The notes under the pieces: model-generated
What the model saw: the letters and a program-made list of their open reading frames with translations, nothing else
Database searches by the model: none
What the model was told of the DNA's origin: nothing
Translations under genes and position numbers: made by a program
Source of the DNA: Candidatus Micrarchaeota archaeon
GTDB lineage: Archaea; Micrarchaeota; Micrarchaeia; Micrarchaeales; CABMGC01
NCBI GenBank assembly: GCA_028867025.1
Contig: JAGWHC010000001.1
Coordinates: 275,198 to 339,197 of the forward strand
Direction of reading: 5' to 3'
Length of the DNA stretch: 64,000 nt
In this document: one piece after another, positions 25,403 through 57,638 of the stretch
How positions within the stretch are numbered: position 1 is the first letter of the stretch
Layout of the letters: the number at the start of each line of letters is the position of its first letter

Positions 25403-25762
25403 CTAGTCTGTGTGGTTTGGCAGGTCGTCGAATTTCTTAGGAAGCCTGCCCCTGGCCATCATCTCCTCTGTGTGTATCGCCCCCGCTATGTTCCACATTG
25501 CCTGGGCGAGATGGTCCTCGTCGCGCTTGCCCTCTATGTGTTGGTTTATGTGTCGCAGCGCAGAATCAAGGAACCTCGATATGGGCATGCCCTTCTCCCA
25601 GTTTCGCTCCCCGTACTTCAGTGCTCCCTTCTCGTATATGAACGCAAGCCTGCGCAGTGCGGTATTCGGTATGAGATCATACCTGCCCTTGCCATCGCGC
25701 GAATCCCGCTGGGCCCCTGAATCAAAAACCTGCTTCTTCCCCGAATCCTTAAGATCGGCCAT
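25403..25762 (-). CDS. dATP/dGTP diphosphohydrolase domain protein (DUF5664-like)
   Basis: SGAQRD..DGKGRYDLIP, GALKYGERNWEKG, SALRH and EDHLA...WN. Confidence 0.8.
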   Translation of the reverse strand: MADLKDSGKKQVFDSGAQRDSRDGKGRYDLIPNTALRRLAFIYEKGALKYGERNWEKGMPISRFLDSALRHINQHIEGKRDEDHLAQAMWNIAGAIHTEEMMARGRLPKKFDDLPNHTD

Positions 25763-25801
25763 TTAACCCCCAAAGAAAGATTAAGTCAGAAAATATATAG
25801 C

Positions 25802-25876
25802 TGCTCCCACCGGGATTTGAACCCGGGTTACGGGGTTGAAAGCCCTGTGTCCTTGGCCGGACTAGACGATGGGAGC
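25802..25876 (-). tRNA. tRNA-Glu(TTC)
   Basis: Acceptor GCTCCCA/TGGGAGC plus A; loop CT-TTC-AA; T-arm CCGGG-TTCAAAT-CCCGG; A28.C42 mismatch. Confidence 0.92.
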
Positions 25877-25908
25877 AGATGTTAGTGCGCTGTCGGCTTA
25901 TTTATTGC

Positions 25909-26511
25909 TTACCTTCTTTCCAAGAACCTGTCGACTATTTCCCGCGTTTCCCTGCTTGCGCCATCTATTCCGTTCTCACCATTGACTACCTTGAACCTGA
26001 ACCTCTTTGCCAGATTGAGATACGCTTTCCTTACCTTGCTGAGCGTCTCCCTCTTTTCGAAAATCTCCCTTTGCTTGCCCCTCTTTTCTATCCTCGAGAT
26101 AGAAAGGTCAGGGCTCACGTCCACAAATATAGTGAGGTCAGGCATTCGGAATTCGCGGTTCACATTGTATAGCCAGTGCGTATCCACGCCTGATGCAAAG
26201 CCGTAGGCGAGTGTCGAGAACATGTACCTGTCGCACACGACTATCTTGCCCTGCTCCAGAGCCGGAAGTATGACATCTTCAAGGTGCCTTGCGCGGTCTG
26301 CACAGAACAGAAGCTGTATGGACTTGTAGGAAGCGCCGCCGTTCTTTTTCAGCACCTCCTTTATCACGCTACCTATCAATCCGGTTGTTGGCTCCTTTGT
26401 CAAAAGCGTCTTGTACCCTTTCTTTCTCAGGTATGCCTCGAGGAGAGACGACTGGGTTGTAACTCCTGCACCATCCAACCCCTCAAACACTATGAACAGG
26501 CCCTTTGCCAT
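25909..26511 (-). CDS. tmk: Thymidylate kinase
   Basis: FIVFEGLDGAG.TTQ, TKEPT, LLF.ADR..H and VVCDRY.FS..AYG. The P-loop Lys appears replaced (GAGVTT). Confidence 0.9.
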   Translation of the reverse strand: MAKGLFIVFEGLDGAGVTTQSSLLEAYLRKKGYKTLLTKEPTTGLIGSVIKEVLKKNGGASYKSIQLLFCADRARHLEDVILPALEQGKIVVCDRYMFSTLAYGFASGVDTHWLYNVNREFRMPDLTIFVDVSPDLSISRIEKRGKQREIFEKRETLSKVRKAYLNLAKRFRFKVVNGENGIDGASRETREIVDRFLERR

Positions 26512-26673
26512 ACATTCCCCCGATTCCTATAACGAACACTTCTGTGAGCTTATTTATAAATGTACACAATAAATCTGACACTTGCTTGCGCATGTTTTAC
26601 GCGCAGAAAAAATGCGCACAGCAAATAGTAAAAAGCCGCCGCCTCAATTATTCTGGACTCTTCTTGGGGTTTC

Positions 26674-27318
26674 ATGAGAGGTATTCTGATTGCTGTAGAA
26701 GGTGCCGATGGAGTAGGCAAACACACGCAGGTGACAATGCTTAACGAACGCCTGAAGGACGAAGGATACAGCACAAAACTTTACTCCTTCCCTGATTATG
26801 AATCTGATTTTGGGAGAATTCTCAAGAGGAATCTGGTGGGGGTGAAGGTTGTGAACAACAAGACTTCTTTTCTCACATATTTGGCTGATATGACTGAAAA
26901 GGCTGGAAAAATAGAAATGGACGTGGAAGCGGGGAATGCTGTTGTACTGGATAGGTACCTTTTCAGCACAGTCGCATATGGCACCACTTTCGGATTTGAT
27001 TACGAAGACGCAAAGATGGTGGAGCGCATTTTTGCGCTGCCGCAACCAGATGTTGTTTTGTATATAGATATGCCTGTCGAAACCTCGATGGTTTGGAAGA
27101 ATGCACAAAGGTCTTTGGAGAAGGAGGACGCTGACAGATATGAGAGAAACAGGGCGGTACAGGAGAAAGTGAGGGCTATCTATGAAAAGCTCATGGAAGA
27201 AAGTTTCATGGCGAGCAGGTGGGTAAAGATAGACGGAGGTAAAAGCAAAGAGGAGGTTCACGAGGCGATAATGAAGGCGGTGATTCCTGTTTTTGTTGAG
27301 AACAGAGTCAAATGTTGA
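26674..27318 (+). CDS. tmk: Second thymidylate-kinase-family dNMP kinase
   Basis: LIAVEGADGVGKHTQ, SFPDY, VLDRYLFSTVAY and LPQPDVVLYID. Confidence 0.85.
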   Translation: MRGILIAVEGADGVGKHTQVTMLNERLKDEGYSTKLYSFPDYESDFGRILKRNLVGVKVVNNKTSFLTYLADMTEKAGKIEMDVEAGNAVVLDRYLFSTVAYGTTFGFDYEDAKMVERIFALPQPDVVLYIDMPVETSMVWKNAQRSLEKEDADRYERNRAVQEKVRAIYEKLMEESFMASRWVKIDGGKSKEEVHEAIMKAVIPVFVENRVKC

Positions 27319-27344
27319 TTCTAATCTTCTGATTCTTCCAGAGT

Positions 27345-27833
27345 CTATTGATTAGGATACTTTTCTACCTTGTTCTCTACATAGACTATTGGTATCCCTG
27401 CCTGTTTAAGGAAATCGCGCGTCAACTTTGCCGCATGGTATTTCTTTTGACAAACTATGCGTTCCACGCCTGCATTTATCAACATCTTTGTGCAGGTGAA
27501 GCACGGCTCAAACTTCACATACAGGGTAGACCCTCCGACGGAAATGCCGTGCAGTGCTGCCTGGAGTATTGCGTTCTGTTCAGCGTGTATCGTTCTTATG
27601 CAGTGCTTCGAGACGGTGCCGTCGGGATTTACCTCATCGCTCATAAGATGCCCTACTTCATCGCAGTGCGGCATGCCCCTTGGCGACCCTACATAGCCTG
27701 TGGTAAGGATCCTTTTGTCCTTCACGAGTACAGCGCCGTTTCTGCCTCTGTCGCACGTACCTCTTGTACCTACGACATGTGCCACATTAAGAAAATACCT
27801 GTCCCATGAAGGTCTTTTGTATTTTTCTACAAT
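27345..27833 (-). CDS. dCMP deaminase (ComEB-like); true start appears upstream of the ORF-track GTG
   Basis: RPSWDRYFL, RGTCDR, TGYVGSP.G..HC, HAEQNA and PCFTC zinc motifs. Confidence 0.9.
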   Translation of the reverse strand: MVEKYKRPSWDRYFLNVAHVVGTRGTCDRGRNGAVLVKDKRILTTGYVGSPRGMPHCDEVGHLMSDEVNPDGTVSKHCIRTIHAEQNAILQAALHGISVGGSTLYVKFEPCFTCTKMLINAGVERIVCQKKYHAAKLTRDFLKQAGIPIVYVENKVEKYPNQ

Positions 27834-27942: not shown

Positions 27943-28221
27943 CTATCTTGAGAGGTCGTTCACTTCTTCCTTTGTAGTCTCCTGCCCGCCGACCGAAGGT
28001 GCGGATACGAGCACTACGTCGCCGACGTTCTTCACGCTCTTGTACAGCACACTCTTCTGCATCAGCGTCTTTCTCATGTCGCCCTTCATGCTCTTCATGG
28101 GTATCATGAGAAGCCTGCTCACTTCTCCCTTCTCCAGATCAACTATTATGTCCTGCACTTCGCCCAAATATTGTCCGGAGTCGCTGTATATGTCCATTCG
28201 ATAGATCTCGGAAAGCTTCAT
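27943..28221 (-). CDS. PRC-barrel domain protein
   Basis: LSEIY.MDIYSDSG.YLGEVQDIIVD...GEV and VKNVGDVVLV. Confidence 0.88.
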   Translation of the reverse strand: MKLSEIYRMDIYSDSGQYLGEVQDIIVDLEKGEVSRLLMIPMKSMKGDMRKTLMQKSVLYKSVKNVGDVVLVSAPSVGGQETTKEEVNDLSR

Positions 28222-28302: not shown

Positions 28303-31026
28303 TCAGTTTTTAACTTTGACGGGCATGGCTTTCTGCGGCTGGGTGCTACCAAGGCGTATCGTCTTCTCCTGCTCCATCGCCCTCTCGTAAGCGGCATTGG
28401 AGCGCAGCAGTCCCTTGGAGATCAGGTGTTGCGCCAGGATAGTCTCGGTAACGTGCCTCGTCATGCGCGAGTTGTCATACTCGTCCTTGGCCACGTAGAT
28501 GTCAACTATGTGGCAGCCGTTGATCCCCCTTATCCCGGATGGCACGTGTATGTTCCTCACGTAGGAGCTCTGGGAGGAGTCCTCCATGGAAAGCCCCCTC
28601 AAGACTACGTGGTTTAGCGTGCTTACGCTCTGCATGCTGTGTAGATCGCCGACGAATGTGGCCACAGCGCTCGACTTGCTTCTCTCCAGCGCCTTTATCA
28701 TGCCAGGCTTGGTGGCAGGGTACCTGTGGGACATCTTGACATTGAACTTGTGATCAATGTCTTCTATGGCATAGGTGTCTGTGCCCGTCTCCTTTCCGCT
28801 AATGGCCTTTATCCTGGATTTCCATCCTTCCGGAAGTTCGCCGTTCTCTCCCGCCATGCTCAGGTACATGATTGTGGAGTTCCTTAGGCGTATCGCTTCA
28901 TCGTGCGCTTCGTCGGCCTCGGTGTTGTTGGCGTGGTTTCCAGAGACAAACGCTATGCCACCTCCGCGCTTCACTACGTCATGGATGACCGGCCCGAAAA
29001 TCTGTATAAAGACTAGAGGCTGCGCGTCTACGTTCAGGATGACCTTGGTATTCGGGTTTGCTATCTCTATTTCTGGGTCAGTTCCCTGGCTTATGATGCT
29101 CGCGTAGCCAATACCTTCCCCTCTGTTGCCCTCCAGTATATCGCCGTCGAAGACTATGCCGTCTGGCTTCTTTTCAAGAAGGAGCTTGACCGCAGCCTTC
29201 ATGAGCTCTATGTCCCCGTGGCCGCCGATATGCGTGTCGGTGATGTGCGCGAACCTATAGCGCCTCTCCGGAAGCGGCTCTGGCTTGCTCATGTAAGGGA
29301 CCATCTCCAGGAGCGTGGATTCTGTCAGCCAAGCAGCATCCCTTGGCTTGAGCTCGCTCGGCCTCTTGCTTTTGATCACTGCCACTTCAAGACTCTCTTT
29401 TGCTTCAATCTCACCTGTTCCGGAAGGTCCGTTCGTGTTCTTAACCGAGCTCAGCATCTTCTTTACTACAAGGCCCTCTTCTATGTCGCTAAGCGCTCGC
29501 TGGTCCCTCAGCAACCTTTCGTTGAGCGAATCAAGCATTATGTCAAAATCGCGGCCTATTGTGATCATTTTAGCTCCGCTGTCTATCAGCGTCTTTGCCA
29601 CGCTCTTAGCTTCCTCTATCTTTGTGCCTTTCTTCCATTCAGTGGAAACGCCTTTCACTCCGTCGCTTCTCCAGAAAGGCCCCTGTTCCACCGTAAGGAG
29701 CAGGGATTTTGACTCGCCCTTAAGCAGCTCCAGCGAGCTTGAGCTGTAGGCGTGGTGTCCGCTCAGCAACAAGTTTATCGGTGCGCTTTCAAGCTTGTAT
29801 TTTGCATACTCGTCGCTGTTCTCAAGAAGTCTGTTAAGCACAACGGAGGGCAGGTTGTTGCTTGAGGTTGTCAGTGCCGCGCTATTTTGTCCCAGTGACC
29901 TACCGATAATCACGTTTACCTGGAAGCTCCCATCCCTAAGTTTGTACACGCTCATTGCGTCGCTCTGTATGCTGAGGTCTCTTTTCCTTCCGAAAACGTC
30001 CTTGAGCGTGGACATGTAGAATGAGACGCTCACGGCGTGTATCTCCTTCATCACATCCGGAGGCGTCCTTGGAGTGTGGGCGAACCTGGTTACCTCCTTC
30101 GTCTTGCTCTGCACTTCTTCGCTTATGAGCGCAAAATCCGCATCCTTCAGTCTTTTTTCTATTTTTCTTAGGGAGTTTGTTAGCCTTTTTGCTTCCAGCA
30201 TCAACTCGTCGAGTTTCTTTTGATCGTTCTGCGCGTTCTTAATCTGGTCGTCCACCAGCTGCTTCTGTTCCATCCTCGCGGTCTGCATCTCGATTAGCTC
30301 ATCCTTGGTGAGCTTTGCCTTTGACATTGTGTCAAGGATTGCTAGATGTTTCTCCCTCTCGACCAGCTCGTCAAGTTCCTCTCTGTTCATGCGCATTTTT
30401 ACTCTGATGTTATCGATTTCTTCCAGGATGTGGACGTCACGCACGTCGTCCGTCCCAAGACCCGAAACAAGCTTTTGGATGGAATCTATGCAGCTTCTTA
30501 GCGTGTCTTCTCTGACAACTCGCGCATCCTGGGTGTCTTGAAGGAAATCTTCTATCGCAATCGGATCAAATGCGTAGGCGAGCTGTATCTTGAGGTCAAG
30601 ATCGTCTACGTTGTTGTCATCGCTCACGCCAGTTACGTAAATCACTTTCGAGGTGCTTGGCAGCGTACGGAACAGCCTTTCCATATGGGGCTTCATCTTG
30701 GCCGCGGCGTCGTCTATGTTTTTTACGCCCTCCTTTAGCGACAAAAGCCTGTACTTCTTCCTCTTAGACGCGACTTCTGGTATTTCGGGCAGGGCGCCGC
30801 CTAGTATCGTGAGCATGTCTGGTACTTCGTGAGGGTTGTGCTGCAGATAGTACGCCAGGCCTATGAGGTTGTCGGTGCTCATGTAGTTTGAGGCTCCGGC
30901 AAGCTGTGAGATTGTCAGCACTTTGAAGTTTTGTCTCTTAATCTGTGATTCGGCAGCAACGCCTGTAGAAGGAACAGGAACTTGCTCTAAATCCTCAATT
31001 CCAGTTTGACCTGGATTGGTCGCCAC
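28303..31026 (-). CDS. Large coiled-coil protein with C-terminal calcineurin-like metallophosphoesterase and probable degenerate N-terminal copy
   Basis: HITDTHIG, FDGDILEG, VSGNH, MSH and VGDLH in the C-terminal half; long K/E/L-rich heptad region at aa ~160-320. Confidence 0.75.
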   Translation of the reverse strand: MATNPGQTGIEDLEQVPVPSTGVAAESQIKRQNFKVLTISQLAGASNYMSTDNLIGLAYYLQHNPHEVPDMLTILGGALPEIPEVASKRKKYRLLSLKEGVKNIDDAAAKMKPHMERLFRTLPSTSKVIYVTGVSDDNNVDDLDLKIQLAYAFDPIAIEDFLQDTQDARVVREDTLRSCIDSIQKLVSGLGTDDVRDVHILEEIDNIRVKMRMNREELDELVEREKHLAILDTMSKAKLTKDELIEMQTARMEQKQLVDDQIKNAQNDQKKLDELMLEAKRLTNSLRKIEKRLKDADFALISEEVQSKTKEVTRFAHTPRTPPDVMKEIHAVSVSFYMSTLKDVFGRKRDLSIQSDAMSVYKLRDGSFQVNVIIGRSLGQNSAALTTSSNNLPSVVLNRLLENSDEYAKYKLESAPINLLLSGHHAYSSSSLELLKGESKSLLLTVEQGPFWRSDGVKGVSTEWKKGTKIEEAKSVAKTLIDSGAKMITIGRDFDIMLDSLNERLLRDQRALSDIEEGLVVKKMLSSVKNTNGPSGTGEIEAKESLEVAVIKSKRPSELKPRDAAWLTESTLLEMVPYMSKPEPLPERRYRFAHITDTHIGGHGDIELMKAAVKLLLEKKPDGIVFDGDILEGNRGEGIGYASIISQGTDPEIEIANPNTKVILNVDAQPLVFIQIFGPVIHDVVKRGGGIAFVSGNHANNTEADEAHDEAIRLRNSTIMYLSMAGENGELPEGWKSRIKAISGKETGTDTYAIEDIDHKFNVKMSHRYPATKPGMIKALERSKSSAVATFVGDLHSMQSVSTLNHVVLRGLSMEDSSQSSYVRNIHVPSGIRGINGCHIVDIYVAKDEYDNSRMTRHVTETILAQHLISKGLLRSNAAYERAMEQEKTIRLGSTQPQKAMPVKVKN

Positions 31027-31185
31027 CAGTCTCCCCGTCGATTACAAGCGTTGATAGAACAACGGCAAGTTTTAAAATATAGGAAAACCAGAATTTTACT
31101 TTGGTTATAAGTAACAGGGATTGAATCATGTTTCAAATTTTTTATCGCGAGAAACTTTTGACACTGGCCAGTTTATAAACATGAA

Positions 31186-32340
31186 CTAAGGCTGCATCCA
31201 GTCTATCTCGAAGTAGTCGTGCTTGCTTCCTGGAAGTTTGATCTGCCTGACCCTGTAGTACGTGACTGCTGTCTCTCTGTCCGCTATTGCAAGCAATAAC
31301 TCCAGCCCCATTTTCTTCGATTCCTCTATAGCCCTCGAGAATTCCTGCCCGCCTATGTACTCCTCCTCACTGAGAGAAAGCATCGCGAACTTCGGTGGGT
31401 TCCTTCCGGGCGCATCGGCTTCGCCACCGTGCCTGTGATACAGAACAAAGTCTATGTTCTGCATTCCGGGACTTGTTTTTCCGGGCACTGCAAGTATCAG
31501 TGTTTTCCTGACTGAATGCGCAACCCTTATGGCCCTCGCCCATTCCGATATGAGCAGCTTTGAGTCTTTGGGAAACACCTGAATGACGTGCTCCGAGTGT
31601 GTCTGCCCTTTGCTGGCTTCCATGGGCCTTGCGCCAGGGAAATAGACCCTGAAATGTGTTCCGAACTTGAATCCTGTCTTGACAACGTAGCCCTTTTCCC
31701 TCCAATCCCTGTAAACTCCGTAAAGGCTCATGAAGTCCTCACGCCTGCCAGTCGCCAGTTTCGCCAGTTCTGCCCTTGTTGCGTTTTGCAGCGCGAGAAT
31801 GCCCTTATCCATAAGAAGCAGCGTCTCGAAAACGTCGAGCTTGTTCAGGCTGCCTCTATCCGCCGCCTTGTACGAGCCGTACTGGCCTATCCAGAATTTC
31901 TCGTATAGCATCCTGCCATCTTTTGCGTCATCAAGAACAGCGACAAGGTCATTCTTGAAAAGGTTTCCGCTAAGTTTGCGCTTGGGCAACCTTAGCGACG
32001 AAGCGGGATAGCCTTTCGCCTGAGGCTGATGGTTTTTTGCATAGTCTTGTTCAGCAGGGATAGCGGTAAGCCCTCGATCCCTCCAGTCTTTGTATGTAAA
32101 GTACCTTGCCATGAACTTGTTGGAGTCTGAGAACCTTGCAGCGAGATCGCTGAATCCTATCTCCTTGCTGCTGTATCTGCAAACAGCGTTGCGCATGTCA
32201 ATCAGATAGAGTGCTTCCTCCACGGTCAGCTTCAGTGAATGGTTTTCAGGAGTGCCATAGAACCCTCTTTTCAGTATGTCCACAGTAGAAGCGTCCGTAG
32301 CGGTTATTGCGCCTTTGCCATGCATCTCAAGTTCAAGCAT
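31186..32340 (-). CDS. endA: tRNA splicing endonuclease, three-unit epsilon2 (ARMAN/Micrarchaeota) type
   Basis: Duplicated units (EEALYL..YKDWRDRG; YRDWREKG); catalytic unit KTGFKFGTHFRVY, HSEH and RVAHSVRK; ~384 aa from the ATG at 32340. Confidence 0.9.
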   Translation of the reverse strand: MLELEMHGKGAITATDASTVDILKRGFYGTPENHSLKLTVEEALYLIDMRNAVCRYSSKEIGFSDLAARFSDSNKFMARYFTYKDWRDRGLTAIPAEQDYAKNHQPQAKGYPASSLRLPKRKLSGNLFKNDLVAVLDDAKDGRMLYEKFWIGQYGSYKAADRGSLNKLDVFETLLLMDKGILALQNATRAELAKLATGRREDFMSLYGVYRDWREKGYVVKTGFKFGTHFRVYFPGARPMEASKGQTHSEHVIQVFPKDSKLLISEWARAIRVAHSVRKTLILAVPGKTSPGMQNIDFVLYHRHGGEADAPGRNPPKFAMLSLSEEEYIGGQEFSRAIEESKKMGLELLLAIADRETAVTYYRVRQIKLPGSKHDYFEIDWMQP

Positions 32341-32439
32341 GTTCGTCTTAGGTATATCGGCATCAAAGCGCTTATAAGCTTCTAGCGTGTCTTGAGTAGT
32401 GGCGACAGATTGGCTGCTGACCATGCCTATAACGAAAGA

Positions 32440-56435: not shown

Positions 56436-57638
56436 GTGAAGATAGCCATAGTGTCTGATTTTCACCTGGGCTACGATAGGTTTAGGGAAGATGCCTTCAA
56501 GCAGGCAGAGCAAGCTCTCGAAGCCGCTGCGAGCGAAGCAGATGCGATAATCATACCTGGCGATGTCTTCGATACGCGCGTCCCAAGGCCGGATGTGCTA
56601 GCAGAGGCGATAAACATATTCAGGAACCTTTCAAAGAAAGAATGGAGGGCTAAGGTCACAGAGGTCAAGGCTGCAAGCAGGGCGTACACGAGCGTTCCAG
56701 TGGTCGCGATACCTGGAACCCACGAGAGGCGTGCGCAGGGAGTGGAGAATCCCGTAAACCTGCTAGGACTCGCGGGGCTGCTGGTCGACGTGAGCGACGG
56801 CTATGCGGTAATCGAAAAGGGAAGCGAGAAGGTTATGGTATTCGGGATAGGAGGCGTTTCTGAAGAGCGTTTCCTCGAAACCATCAAAAAGCTGGATCCC
56901 AAACCGATGTCAGGACATTTCAGCATCTTCATGTTCCACCAGTCCGCCTACGAGCTGCTTCCTTTCAGCGACGATTTCATTCACCTTGACCAGCTTCCGA
57001 AAGGCTTTGATCTATACGTCAACGGTCACATACACAACAGGGTGGAGAAGAAGGTCCACGGGAAGAACTTCCTCATACCAGGCAGCACCGTACTCACGCA
57101 GCTCAAGGACGGCGAGCAGGAAGAGAAGGGTTTCTTCATATTTGACACAAACTCAGAAGCGTACTCCTTCAGAAAGATAAAATCCAGGAGGTTCACTGTC
57201 GCAAAGGTAAACGCGGAAGGCAAAACCGCAGGCGAGCTTGAAGCGGAGATAAGGAAAGCGGTGGATTCCGCGCTCAAACCAGGGGAGGTGCCCATAATCA
57301 GGGTGGAAATAAGCGGCGCGATGAAGAAATCCAGAAGCATAGACGTGGATTTCCACGGTATAATGAAGGGATATCAGGGCAAAGCGATTGTGGAGATAGC
57401 GAAACCAGGCATGGAAGCGATAGAGGCTAATAACACGGACATCGACGCTTTGAGGAAGGGTTCGCTGGAGAACATGTCTGTCAAGGATTACGGCCTTGGG
57501 ATCTTCGTCGAGAAGCTGAGAGGGAACAAGTACGAGCTCGGCATAGGCCCCACAGAGCTCTTCGACCTGCTGAGCGAGGACGGCAGCAAGGACAAGGTAA
57601 TAAAGAAGGCTCTCGAAGAGCTGTTTTCTAGCGCGTAG
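56436..57638 (+). CDS. mre11: DNA repair exonuclease Mre11/SbcD-like
   Basis: VSDFHLG, PGDVFD, PGTHE, MFHQ, NGHIH and PGS; capping domain. Confidence 0.85.
   Translation: MKIAIVSDFHLGYDRFREDAFKQAEQALEAAASEADAIIIPGDVFDTRVPRPDVLAEAINIFRNLSKKEWRAKVTEVKAASRAYTSVPVVAIPGTHERRAQGVENPVNLLGLAGLLVDVSDGYAVIEKGSEKVMVFGIGGVSEERFLETIKKLDPKPMSGHFSIFMFHQSAYELLPFSDDFIHLDQLPKGFDLYVNGHIHNRVEKKVHGKNFLIPGSTVLTQLKDGEQEEKGFFIFDTNSEAYSFRKIKSRRFTVAKVNAEGKTAGELEAEIRKAVDSALKPGEVPIIRVEISGAMKKSRSIDVDFHGIMKGYQGKAIVEIAKPGMEAIEANNTDIDALRKGSLENMSVKDYGLGIFVEKLRGNKYELGIGPTELFDLLSEDGSKDKVIKKALEELFSSA

Follow-up and report, generated by a model that had tools for sequence, protein, structure and literature searches.

A Micrarchaeota protein family joining an intact and a degenerate DP1-like metallophosphoesterase domain, with a helical arm inserted in the degenerate copy

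The metallophosphoesterase (MPE) nucleases Mre11, SbcD, and DP1, together with the inactive B-subunits of DNA polymerases, are central to DNA repair and replication. DP1 is the small subunit of the archaeal DNA polymerase D (PolD) and acts as its 3'-5' proofreading exonuclease; Mre11 functions as a dimer, whose two MPE domains are bound to a coiled-coil protein; and the B-subunits of the eukaryotic polymerases alpha, delta, epsilon, and zeta are inactivated MPE domains, which, like Vps29 and GAP50, are known as scaffolds. A precedent for the pairing of an active MPE with a dead relative is found in Dbr1 and Drn1, where, as excerpts of the published report describe it (PMC4105757), the inactive paralogue binds and enhances the active one. 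Here, we describe a gene from a Candidatus Micrarchaeota archaeon that appears to bring such a pair together in a single chain. The gene occupies positions 28303 to 31026 on the minus strand of the 64,000-nucleotide stretch of DNA that was analyzed (referred to as the window; contig JAGWHC010000001.1, positions 275,198 to 339,197) and consists of 907 codons plus a stop codon (GTG start, 31026 to 31024; TGA, 28303 to 28305). The original prediction, made from the letters alone, had read its product as an intact C-terminal MPE domain preceded by a degenerate one that is split by a coiled coil, and all motif strings that it named are indeed present in the 907-amino-acid (aa) protein, in the proposed order.

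Across the family, the C-terminal copy keeps a complete binuclear-metal active site. The whole protein was modelled with AlphaFold2 on a 38-row family alignment (predicted local distance difference test, pLDDT, 84.6; predicted template modelling score, pTM, 0.84), and fold searches identified two MPE domains in the model. The intact one, supported by Pfam, by VIA fold matches, and by ligand counts, covers residues 586 to 880 (28387 to 29271; like the gene itself, all of its parts lie on the minus strand). It contains motif I (TDTH, residues 596 to 599; D597-x-H599 at 29230 to 29238), motif II (GDILEG, 628 to 633; G628-D629 at 29140 to 29145), motif III (GNH, 696 to 698; G696-N697-H698 at 28933 to 28941), motif IV [(M)SH, 765 to 767; H767 at 28726 to 28728], and motif V (GDLH, 793 to 796; G793-D794-x-H796 at 28639 to 28650). 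Conservation was counted over 48 members, 14 of them from genome loci and 34 from an alignment (A1) whose rows P0003, P0005, and P0014 were left out as duplicates of loci. D597, H698, H767, and H796 are present in all 48, H599 and D629 in 47 each, and N697 in 43 (Q in the other 5); position 794 is H in 32 members and D in 16. Residues Q669, E710, G744, and G837 are invariants specific to the family, and a family-specific insert follows motif II.

In sequence libraries, the PF00149 match of this domain was marginal (23.0 bits against a cutoff of 21.5; E = 1.2e-4) and extended over residues 591 to 699, i.e., over motifs I to III only, and searches of NCBIfam and of the PDB sequences with the full protein returned nothing useful. 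The two-sheet beta-sandwich of model residues 586 to 893 matched dozens of MPE structures with VIA Z scores of 13 to 16. The best match was PolD DP1 (8ppt_A; Z, 16.3; root mean square deviation [rmsd], 2.8; 212 residues aligned), followed by the small phosphodiesterase MJ0936 (1s3l_A; Z, 16.2), several Mre11 structures (Z, ~15), polymerase delta and zeta B-subunits (Z, 14 to 15), and LpxH (Z, 14.2), and the top Foldseek E value was obtained with the cNMP phosphodiesterase Rv0805 (3ib7; 6.1e-6).

The N-terminal copy has kept its fold, has lost its ligands, and is constrained as strongly as the active copy. It comes in two parts, residues 30 to 133 (30628 to 30939), which form a beta1-alpha-beta2-alpha-beta3 unit with pseudo-motifs I (FKVLTISQL, 34 to 42), II (PDMLTILGG, 69 to 77), and III (VIYVTGVSD, 128 to 136), and residues 345 to 502 (29521 to 29994), which carry pseudo-motifs IV (VIIGRS, 372 to 377) and V (LLLSGHH, 419 to 425), with a strand order that parallels that of the C-terminal domain. 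Residues 29 to 530, folded alone, yielded a pLDDT of 88.0 and were compared by VIA with 48,161 chains, without a Foldseek prefilter. The top match was again PolD DP1 (5ihe_A; Z, 17.8; rmsd, 3.4; 232 residues aligned over model positions 1 to 479), ahead of the polymerase delta B-subunit (3e0j_A; Z, 15.4), MJ0936 (Z, 13.8), 6p1h_B (Z, 13.7), the polymerase epsilon (5vbn_A; Z, 13.5) and alpha (3flo_A; Z, 12.9) B-subunits, and Mre11 (Z, 12 to 12.7; 3av0_A, 12.7). Among the best 50 matches, 47 were MPE-fold proteins, spanning approximately positions 1 to 480 of the model, and Vps29, GAP50, and polymerase B-subunits were all found among the matches. Since the DP1 alignment runs across the intervening helices (residues 134 to 344), we interpret the N-terminal half as a single MPE fold that is interrupted by them, in line with the degenerate, split domain of the original prediction.

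At the positions where metal ligands are expected, other or variable residues are found. In motif I, position 41 is E in 21, D in 15, and Q in 5 of the 48 members, and the histidine at position 43 has been replaced, by G in 32 of them; the aspartate of motif II (position 77) has given way to G (30 members) or E (13 members); positions 134 and 135 (motif III) and 376 (motif IV) are variable; and H424 of motif V is a histidine in only 25 of 48. Metal binding therefore appears to have been lost from this copy. The domain has conserved residues of its own instead: G56 (47/48), P69 (44/48), K112 (42/48), R117 (46/48), Y130 (45/48), D136 (47/48), and N139 (46/48), a near-invariant P80, and, in its second part, the family motifs FGR (345 to 347), GPF (449 to 451), K469-T470..T473, and S483-G484.

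The helices that interrupt this fold form an antiparallel hairpin (residues 134 to 344; 29995 to 30627), inserted directly after pseudo-motif III and turning at approximately residues 238 to 240. In the model, the arm measures ~210 residues, ~100 each way, with outgoing helices at 134 to 153, 155 to 188, and 194 to 237 and returning helices at 241 to 264, 269 to 296, 303 to 316, and 323 to 344; the arm expected from the original prediction was thus found, at a greater length than the ~160 aa estimated there. We label it a coiled coil on the basis of this helix layout, of the superposition of 91 consecutive residues on the coiled coil of CT398 (rmsd, 2.3), and of family profile hits to coiled coils of known structure, including PcsB (4cgk; E = 2.8e-4), antiparallel coils made by design, and tropomyosin. 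All 48 members have the insert, with lengths of 121 to 233 aa, and K280 is nearly invariant (K in 45, R in 3). A comparison with SMC and Rad50 proteins, which had also been suggested, holds for the shape of the arm only: in the model, a long antiparallel helical hairpin emerges from a globular head beside an MPE nuclease-type domain, as in Rad50/SMC, but here the arm sits inside the MPE fold, and there is no Walker A/B ATPase, zinc hook, or hinge. Consistent with what had been predicted, neither a P-loop family (Pfam) nor a Walker A or CxxC pattern (regular expressions) was detected in the protein, which has just two cysteines (residues 179 and 838); scattered, nonhomologous regular-expression matches occur in other members (Walker A, 3/48; CxxC, 1/48). 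A homodimer prediction for two copies of residues 130 to 348, run without controls, scored 0.04 against a mark of 0.42.

Selection was estimated from the comparison with the orthologue in G010, for which synonymous divergence is saturated (dS > 1), so that the ratios are approximate. For the whole protein, the dN/dS ratio was 0.07; taken separately, the N-terminal MPE domain had a ratio of 0.07, the arm one of 0.035, and the C-terminal MPE domain one of 0.047. Purifying selection is strong in all three and relaxed only in the two terminal tails. Because they are so strongly constrained, we regard the dead domain and the arm as functional parts of the protein.

By structure and by profile, both halves are closest to DP1 and then to Mre11/SbcD, with the restriction that the profile matches of the N-terminal half are not significant. 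The C-terminal profile aligned with DP1 from the same order over 191 columns (hhalign, 95.4%; E = 1.7e-8), pairing GDxIEG with GDlvDG, NiDxQ with DiYxQ, GNH with GNH, and GHxH with GHIH, compared to 47 columns only (74%) for Mre11 from that order. DP1 was the top structural match of both halves, and motifs of a common shape in the C-terminal domain and DP1 are GDx[IV][ED]G, a D-x-x-Q that precedes helix alpha2, GNH, and GHxH. Unlike DP1, the protein has neither an oligonucleotide/oligosaccharide-binding (OB) fold (Pfam) nor the DP1 N-terminal domain; its domain is duplicated, with one dead copy carrying the arm, and has the insert after motif II; and the DP1 equivalog models NF003116 to NF003120 did not match it at an E value of ≤1. 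The starts of the two MPE domains could also be aligned with each other (61%; E = 8e-5), with beta1/motif I and beta2/motif II paired. The profile alignments, taken with the structural ranking, favor an origin in which a DP1-like phosphodiesterase domain was duplicated in tandem.

As in Mre11/SbcD, the fold is that of an MPE nuclease, and the outline of an Mre11 dimer with its coiled coil might be compared to that of this single chain; here, however, both domains belong to one polypeptide, only one of them is predicted to be active, and the coiled coil is inserted in the nuclease fold rather than being part of a separate ATPase subunit. No Mre11 or SbcD model of NCBIfam matched at an E value of ≤1. 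The polymerase B-subunits are good fold matches for the N-terminal half and, having lost their ligands and yet being conserved, suggest a docking role for it, but this half lacks an OB fold or a known polymerase partner, shares its chain with an active copy, and contains the arm insertion. The Dbr1-Drn1 pair, as described in the excerpted report (PMC4105757), is likewise a live MPE working with a pseudo-MPE paralogue; there, the two are distinct proteins of eukaryotes that act on RNA lariats, and the parallel would be one of analogy. MJ0936 and Rv0805 equal DP1 and Mre11 as fold matches to the C-terminal domain, the level at which they were compared, and are single-domain enzymes of 165 to 300 aa. 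No characterized family accounts for the architecture as a whole, which the original prediction had not recognized either: the MPE superfamily is well known, but a tandem live/dead DP1-like pair with a hairpin after pseudo-motif III was not found in Pfam, NCBIfam, the PDB sequences, PADLOC, or PHROGs, and the abstracts and excerpts retrieved in a literature search mention neither a tandem MPE with a coiled-coil insertion nor this Micrarchaeota family.

Taking these observations together, we tentatively propose, at a probability a little short of even, that the protein is a single-chain, pseudo-dimeric nuclease of the DP1/Mre11 type. It would have arisen when a phosphodiesterase domain of the PolD-DP1/Mre11 type was duplicated in tandem, and its C-terminal copy would act as a Mn/Fe-dependent phosphodiesterase on nucleic acid ends, possibly as a 3'-5' exo- or endonuclease that releases 5'-mononucleotides, as DP1 and Mre11/SbcD do. 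The dead copy might serve as a fixed, noncatalytic partner, giving shape to the substrate groove or docking another protein, by analogy with the second subunit of an Mre11 dimer, with the inactive MPE domain of polymerase B-subunits, or with Drn1 in its relation to Dbr1, and the arm, roughly 13 to 15 nm when fully extended, could be a spacer or docking rod. DNA-end processing, in repair or recombination, or the breakdown of DNA or RNA for nucleotide salvage in a symbiont with a reduced genome would be the most likely biological role. Since the nearest relatives are DP1 and Mre11, DNA processing is the best supported of the functional guesses, and the presence of a UvrD-PD-(D/E)XK helicase-nuclease in the same genomic slot of a related genome (G002) is a further point in its favor.

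Several findings weigh against this proposal. Nuclease activity is predicted from fold and active site, and these would suit a small-molecule phosphodiesterase as well as a nuclease, with MJ0936 (by Z score) and Rv0805 (by Foldseek E value) level with DP1 and Mre11. That the two MPE domains pack together, and do so much as in an Mre11 dimer, is suggested by the pTM of the model only. Profiles of the N-terminal domain aligned colinearly, though not significantly, with DP1 (2.4%) and Mre11 (14%). Pfam detected neither an OB fold nor a capping domain nor any other DNA-binding family, and the net charge of the arm (-12) does not suggest that it binds DNA; in a simple Fourier scan, used in place of a proper coiled-coil predictor, its heptad periodicity was weak. 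Finally, neither BLAST at 13 loci nor Pfam at 10 loci revealed conserved neighbors that would point to a pathway.

A clearly less likely alternative is that the C-terminal domain is a small-molecule phosphodiesterase or pyrophosphatase acting on cyclic nucleotides, 2',3'-cyclic phosphates, dinucleoside polyphosphates, or similar compounds, with the N-terminal domain as a metal-free ligand sensor that would use its G-[ED]-x-G-G-G loop and K-P-H..R motif. The scores obtained with Rv0805 (E = 6.1e-6), MJ0936 (Z, 16.2), and LpxH (Z, 14.2) fit this idea, and the conserved nonligand residues of the N-terminal domain would suit a binding pocket. The neighborhood within the genus fits the idea as well: as the original prediction had it, a PRC-barrel gene and a nucleotide cassette lie close by, the latter encoding a dCMP deaminase, a pair of thymidylate kinases, and a MazZ-like protein. 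In addition, G040 has a MazG gene after its family member, and the member in G013 is flanked by a nucleoside phosphorylase gene. The vicinity of the PRC-barrel gene and the cassette is not evidence of function, however: genomes of the same genus keep both in the absence of the 907-aa gene, the neighbors differ outside the genus, and those other neighbors are unrelated housekeeping genes. Moreover, the C-terminal profile is nearest to DP1 over nearly the whole domain, and it would be unusual for a metabolite hydrolase to have two domains in a body of 900 aa and a long arm.

How the family is distributed bears on whether the DP1/Mre11-like protein might instead be directed against invaders. Among 1.84 billion representative proteins, phmmer retrieved 56 relatives at an E value of ≤1e-3 (47 at ≤1e-10 and 22 at ≤1e-30), mostly 850 to 1,000 aa long and matching over the full length; shorter ones look like fragments. 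With 56 homologous representatives of like length and a dN/dS ratio of ~0.07, the open reading frame (ORF) is far beyond what chance would produce. The single protein found a match in 20 of 41 genomes of close relatives (a set that, here and below, includes G038, flagged as unpublished, which none of our claims depends on), or in 12 of the 25 high-quality ones. Of 301 genomes that were sampled across the phylum, 54 had a match to a 38-member profile, and 7 of these matches were other phosphoesterases (short matches to motifs I and II in 277- to 505-aa ORFs), which left 47 true members: the genome under study, 20 of 53 from its own family, 25 of 75 from the sister family, and one from another family in the class. 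All but one of the 47 (46) belong to a single order of Micrarchaeota, with patchy occurrence even within the genus. The family tree has at least three deep subfamilies, in which genera and families are intermixed. In the ESM Atlas, unnamed or Metallophos clusters were found at 0.90 to 0.91, with 163 to 166 shared features (below the guide value of 170).

The gene is present as a single copy in its own genome. One relative (G024) carries two paralogues at unrelated loci (L015, 1395 to 3959, plus strand; L016, 5938 to 8937, minus strand), with sizes of 854 aa (from the first start codon of a 931-codon frame) and 999 aa (1,003-codon frame); one of them adjoins the gene for ribosomal protein S11.

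Within the genus, the gene is found between the genes for a 92-aa PRC-barrel protein and a tRNA-splicing endonuclease, and orthologues occupy the same slot in G009 (58% identity) and G010 (83 to 84% identity). In G005, the slot holds an inverted, 996-aa member of another deep subfamily (21.5% identity; family hidden Markov model E = 2.7e-190), compared to 74% identity for the flanking tRNA-splicing endonuclease (EndA), and in G002, it holds an unrelated 962-aa fusion of a UvrD helicase and a PD-(D/E)XK nuclease (L057, 6217 to 9105, plus strand; PF00580, E = 1.8e-26; PF12705, E = 7.3e-9) with PADLOC matches to GajB-like and DRT-associated helicases; in G001, G004, and G012, it is empty. In view of this variable slot, the intermixed subfamilies, and the two copies in G024, we consider the gene to be accessory and to have been gained, lost, or exchanged. 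The helicase-nuclease was found in 8 of the 41 relatives and, with the G002 protein as the query, not in the genome under study. Mutual exclusion of the two proteins was considered and dropped, as there was no association (3 genomes with both, 5 with the helicase only, 17 with the family only, and 16 with neither). A conserved operon partner was likewise rejected, since an all-against-all BLAST search of the ORFs at 13 loci revealed no shared neighbor beyond the genus; Pfam searches of 58 flanking proteins at 10 loci identified unrelated housekeeping genes, with the neighbors outside the genus differing at every locus.

This accessory, patchy distribution (20 of 41 relatives; 47 of 301 genomes, 46 of them in one order), the mixing of at least three deep subfamilies across genera and families, the duplicate in G024, and a slot that holds one subfamily (G000, the genome under study, G009, and G010), another one inverted (G005), a nuclease fusion with GajB-like matches (G002), or nothing would all be in keeping with a stand-alone defense nuclease against viruses or plasmids, in which the pseudo-domain and arm sense the invader. 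We nevertheless think this improbable, and of the defense role that had been suggested at the outset, the distribution and the variable slot offer weak support. PADLOC-DB 2.0 (a 2023 library with few archaeal systems) assigned no family to the protein, and matches in other members were weak (E values of ~1e-3 to 1e-2), mostly located in the coiled coil, and never to a nuclease or MPE (JetC and LmuB coiled-coil regions in P0008 and one match each in P0017 and P0036). PHROGs returned a generic metallo-phosphoesterase match only, and with P0001 and P0040 as queries, in scans that detect close relatives, no tblastn-confirmed relatives were found in viral contigs. Furthermore, the genes flanking the family at 10 loci are housekeeping genes and one IS605-type TnpB, purifying selection is strong, the divergence of the gene is not unusual for its neighborhood but similar to that of adjacent housekeeping genes, and its presence is uncorrelated with that of the UvrD-PD-(D/E)XK protein. 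A viral origin was also rejected: no close relatives were found in viral contigs, and a Foldseek search of BFVD returned single-domain MPE proteins only (TMq, ≤0.26).

A bolder version of the nuclease proposal, which is improbable to about the same degree as a role in defense, would make the protein an ATPase-free, single-polypeptide counterpart of Mre11-Rad50 that derives from the proofreading subunit of the replicative polymerase of archaea. In it, live and dead DP1-type domains would be locked together as a pseudo-dimer, the conserved, metal-free, glycine-rich pocket of the dead one would sense a DNA end or nucleotide signal and gate the nuclease, and the arm would act as a ruler or as a tether for a second molecule. 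If this were true, the family would represent a machine of a new class for processing DNA ends or scavenging nucleotides in genome-reduced Micrarchaeota and a natural example of how a polymerase B-subunit-like pseudo-nuclease emerges. The interest of the family does not depend on that extreme, as it joins a live and a dead DP1-like domain in one chain, both under selection, and has an arm inside the fold. If it is a nuclease, it would be a compact model for the influence of pseudo-enzyme partners and arms on how a nuclease acts; the family may also be relevant to DNA processing in DPANN symbionts, which rely on scavenged nucleotides. Should its activity turn out to be ordinary, it would still be a clean example of a lineage-specific domain duplication with one copy inactivated. 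The reach of these conclusions is limited by the confinement of the family to one order of uncultured archaea.

We consider it very unlikely that the protein is mainly structural, e.g., a scaffold in cell division, chromosome organization, or host contact, with catalysis as a secondary property. Its arm is long, scaffold-type inactive MPE proteins are among the fold matches of its N-terminal half, and the adjacent gene encodes a PRC-barrel protein, a family tied to archaeal cell division according to the available portion of a recent preprint (10.1101/2023.03.28.534520). Yet the C-terminal active site is kept in 43 to 48 of 48 members, depending on the residue, the PRC-barrel gene persists without the 907-aa gene in G001, G004, and G012, and no match to the latter was obtained in roughly half of the close relatives. 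Neither a signal peptide-like, hydrophobic N terminus nor a transmembrane-like segment was detected (maximal KD19, 1.47), so that the host-directed protein that had been envisaged has no support; the protein is predicted to be soluble and is probably cytoplasmic.

The genome encodes the established proteins as well. Its own DP1 (526 aa) matches NF003118 (458.6 bits; E = 2.8e-137). A 400-aa Mre11 is encoded inside the window (56436 to 57638, plus strand; NF041031, Mre11_Sulfo, E = 3.2e-25; PF00149, E = 2.7e-11); it was seen by means of TIGR00619 as a 408-codon open frame, having been missed by a PF00149 search of the genome that listed 4 MPE genes. For most of the 41 relatives, whether or not they carry the family, ORFs of 400 to 441 aa with a TIGR00619-type match were listed, the full family scan being confined to the Mre11 of the window. 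Rad50 (670 aa, with a zinc hook; G000:C11:458484-460514) is flanked by FtsZ, GNAT, and PAC2 genes, with no nuclease gene beside it. Archaeal mre11 and rad50 genes usually form one operon, which is split here, the two genes being unlinked. Since all three proteins are encoded, the 907-aa protein replaces none of DP1, Mre11, and Rad50, and its candidacy as an Mre11 replacement was dropped accordingly. The idea that it partners Rad50 as a fused Mre11 dimer, with the arm running along the Rad50 coiled coil, could draw on the orphan rad50 gene, the Mre11-like fold of both halves, and the first PF00149 search, in which no Mre11 was apparent, but it is largely refuted by the separate Mre11, and we attach hardly any credence to it. 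In addition, the 907-aa protein matched none of the Mre11 family models, and a Rad50-binding helix-loop-helix could not be identified. The mre11 and rad50 genes lie ~127 kb apart on the same contig, and the genome also encodes two small SbcD-related/PdeM-like phosphoesterases.

A stored alternative gene call (P0002, 872 aa) begins at residue 36 of the 907-aa ORF. We prefer the longer gene model because the shorter one cuts the conserved strand beta1 and because the 83%-identical homologue P0003, which opens with MATAP.. at the counterpart of residue 1, shares the long N terminus, the first 35 residues being conserved. The gene has an upstream region of its own, as proposed originally: the 160-nucleotide spacer that separates its GTG codon from the upstream tRNA-splicing endonuclease gene contains a putative TATA-box-like element, TATATTTTAAAA (31070 to 31083, minus strand; ~45 to 55 nucleotides upstream of the GTG), which may serve as the promoter, and a Shine-Dalgarno-like GGGGAG (31031 to 31036, minus strand) is found 4 nucleotides before the start codon.

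The remaining parts of the protein are less regular. The N-terminal tail (residues 1 to 29; 30940 to 31026) is disordered, acidic, and poorly conserved (pLDDT, 28 to 38), with an amino acid identity of 0.38 and a dN/dS ratio of 0.86 relative to the G010 orthologue. The linker between the MPE domains (residues 503 to 585; 29272 to 29520) comprises a long helix (503 to 527), a low-confidence loop, and short helices, and includes the conserved motif K-[LR]-P-S-E-[LIM] (residues 554 to 559; nucleotides 29350 to 29367), with K554 in 38, P556 in 44, S557 in 43, and E558 in 46 of the 48 members. The C-terminal tail (residues 881 to 907; 28306 to 28386), modelled with low confidence (pLDDT, 53 to 70), is basic (net charge, +3) and ends in a motif, [KR]-[VIL]-K-x, that recurs among the 38 aligned members (VKVKN in this protein).

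Finally, the genes around the locus deserve a brief description. On the downstream side, the PRC-barrel protein (92 aa; 27943 to 28221, minus strand; PF05239, E = 3.4e-8) is encoded by the most conserved gene of the neighborhood, at 96 to 97% identity across the genus and dN/dS ratios of 0.02 to 0.03. It is followed by the nucleotide metabolism cluster (25403 to 27785), composed of the dCMP deaminase gene (27345 to 27785, minus strand), two divergently transcribed thymidylate kinase genes (26674 to 27318, plus strand; 25909 to 26511, minus strand), and the gene for the MazZ-like protein (119 aa; 25403 to 25762, minus strand), which has a phage-type dATP/dGTP diphosphohydrolase N-terminal domain (PF18909; E = 1.1e-21). 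Genomes of the same genus have a dCTP deaminase/dUTPase-like gene in this region instead. On the other side, the tRNA-splicing endonuclease (412 aa; 31186 to 32424, minus strand) has two PF01974 stretches and an N-terminal domain in one chain, i.e., the multi-unit, single-chain form. In G032, the family gene is directly followed downstream by a gene for a TatD DNase, and an IS605-type OrfB/TnpB gene (Cas12f-like TNB domain; L014, 2885 to 4132, minus strand) is located ~1.9 kb away from it.

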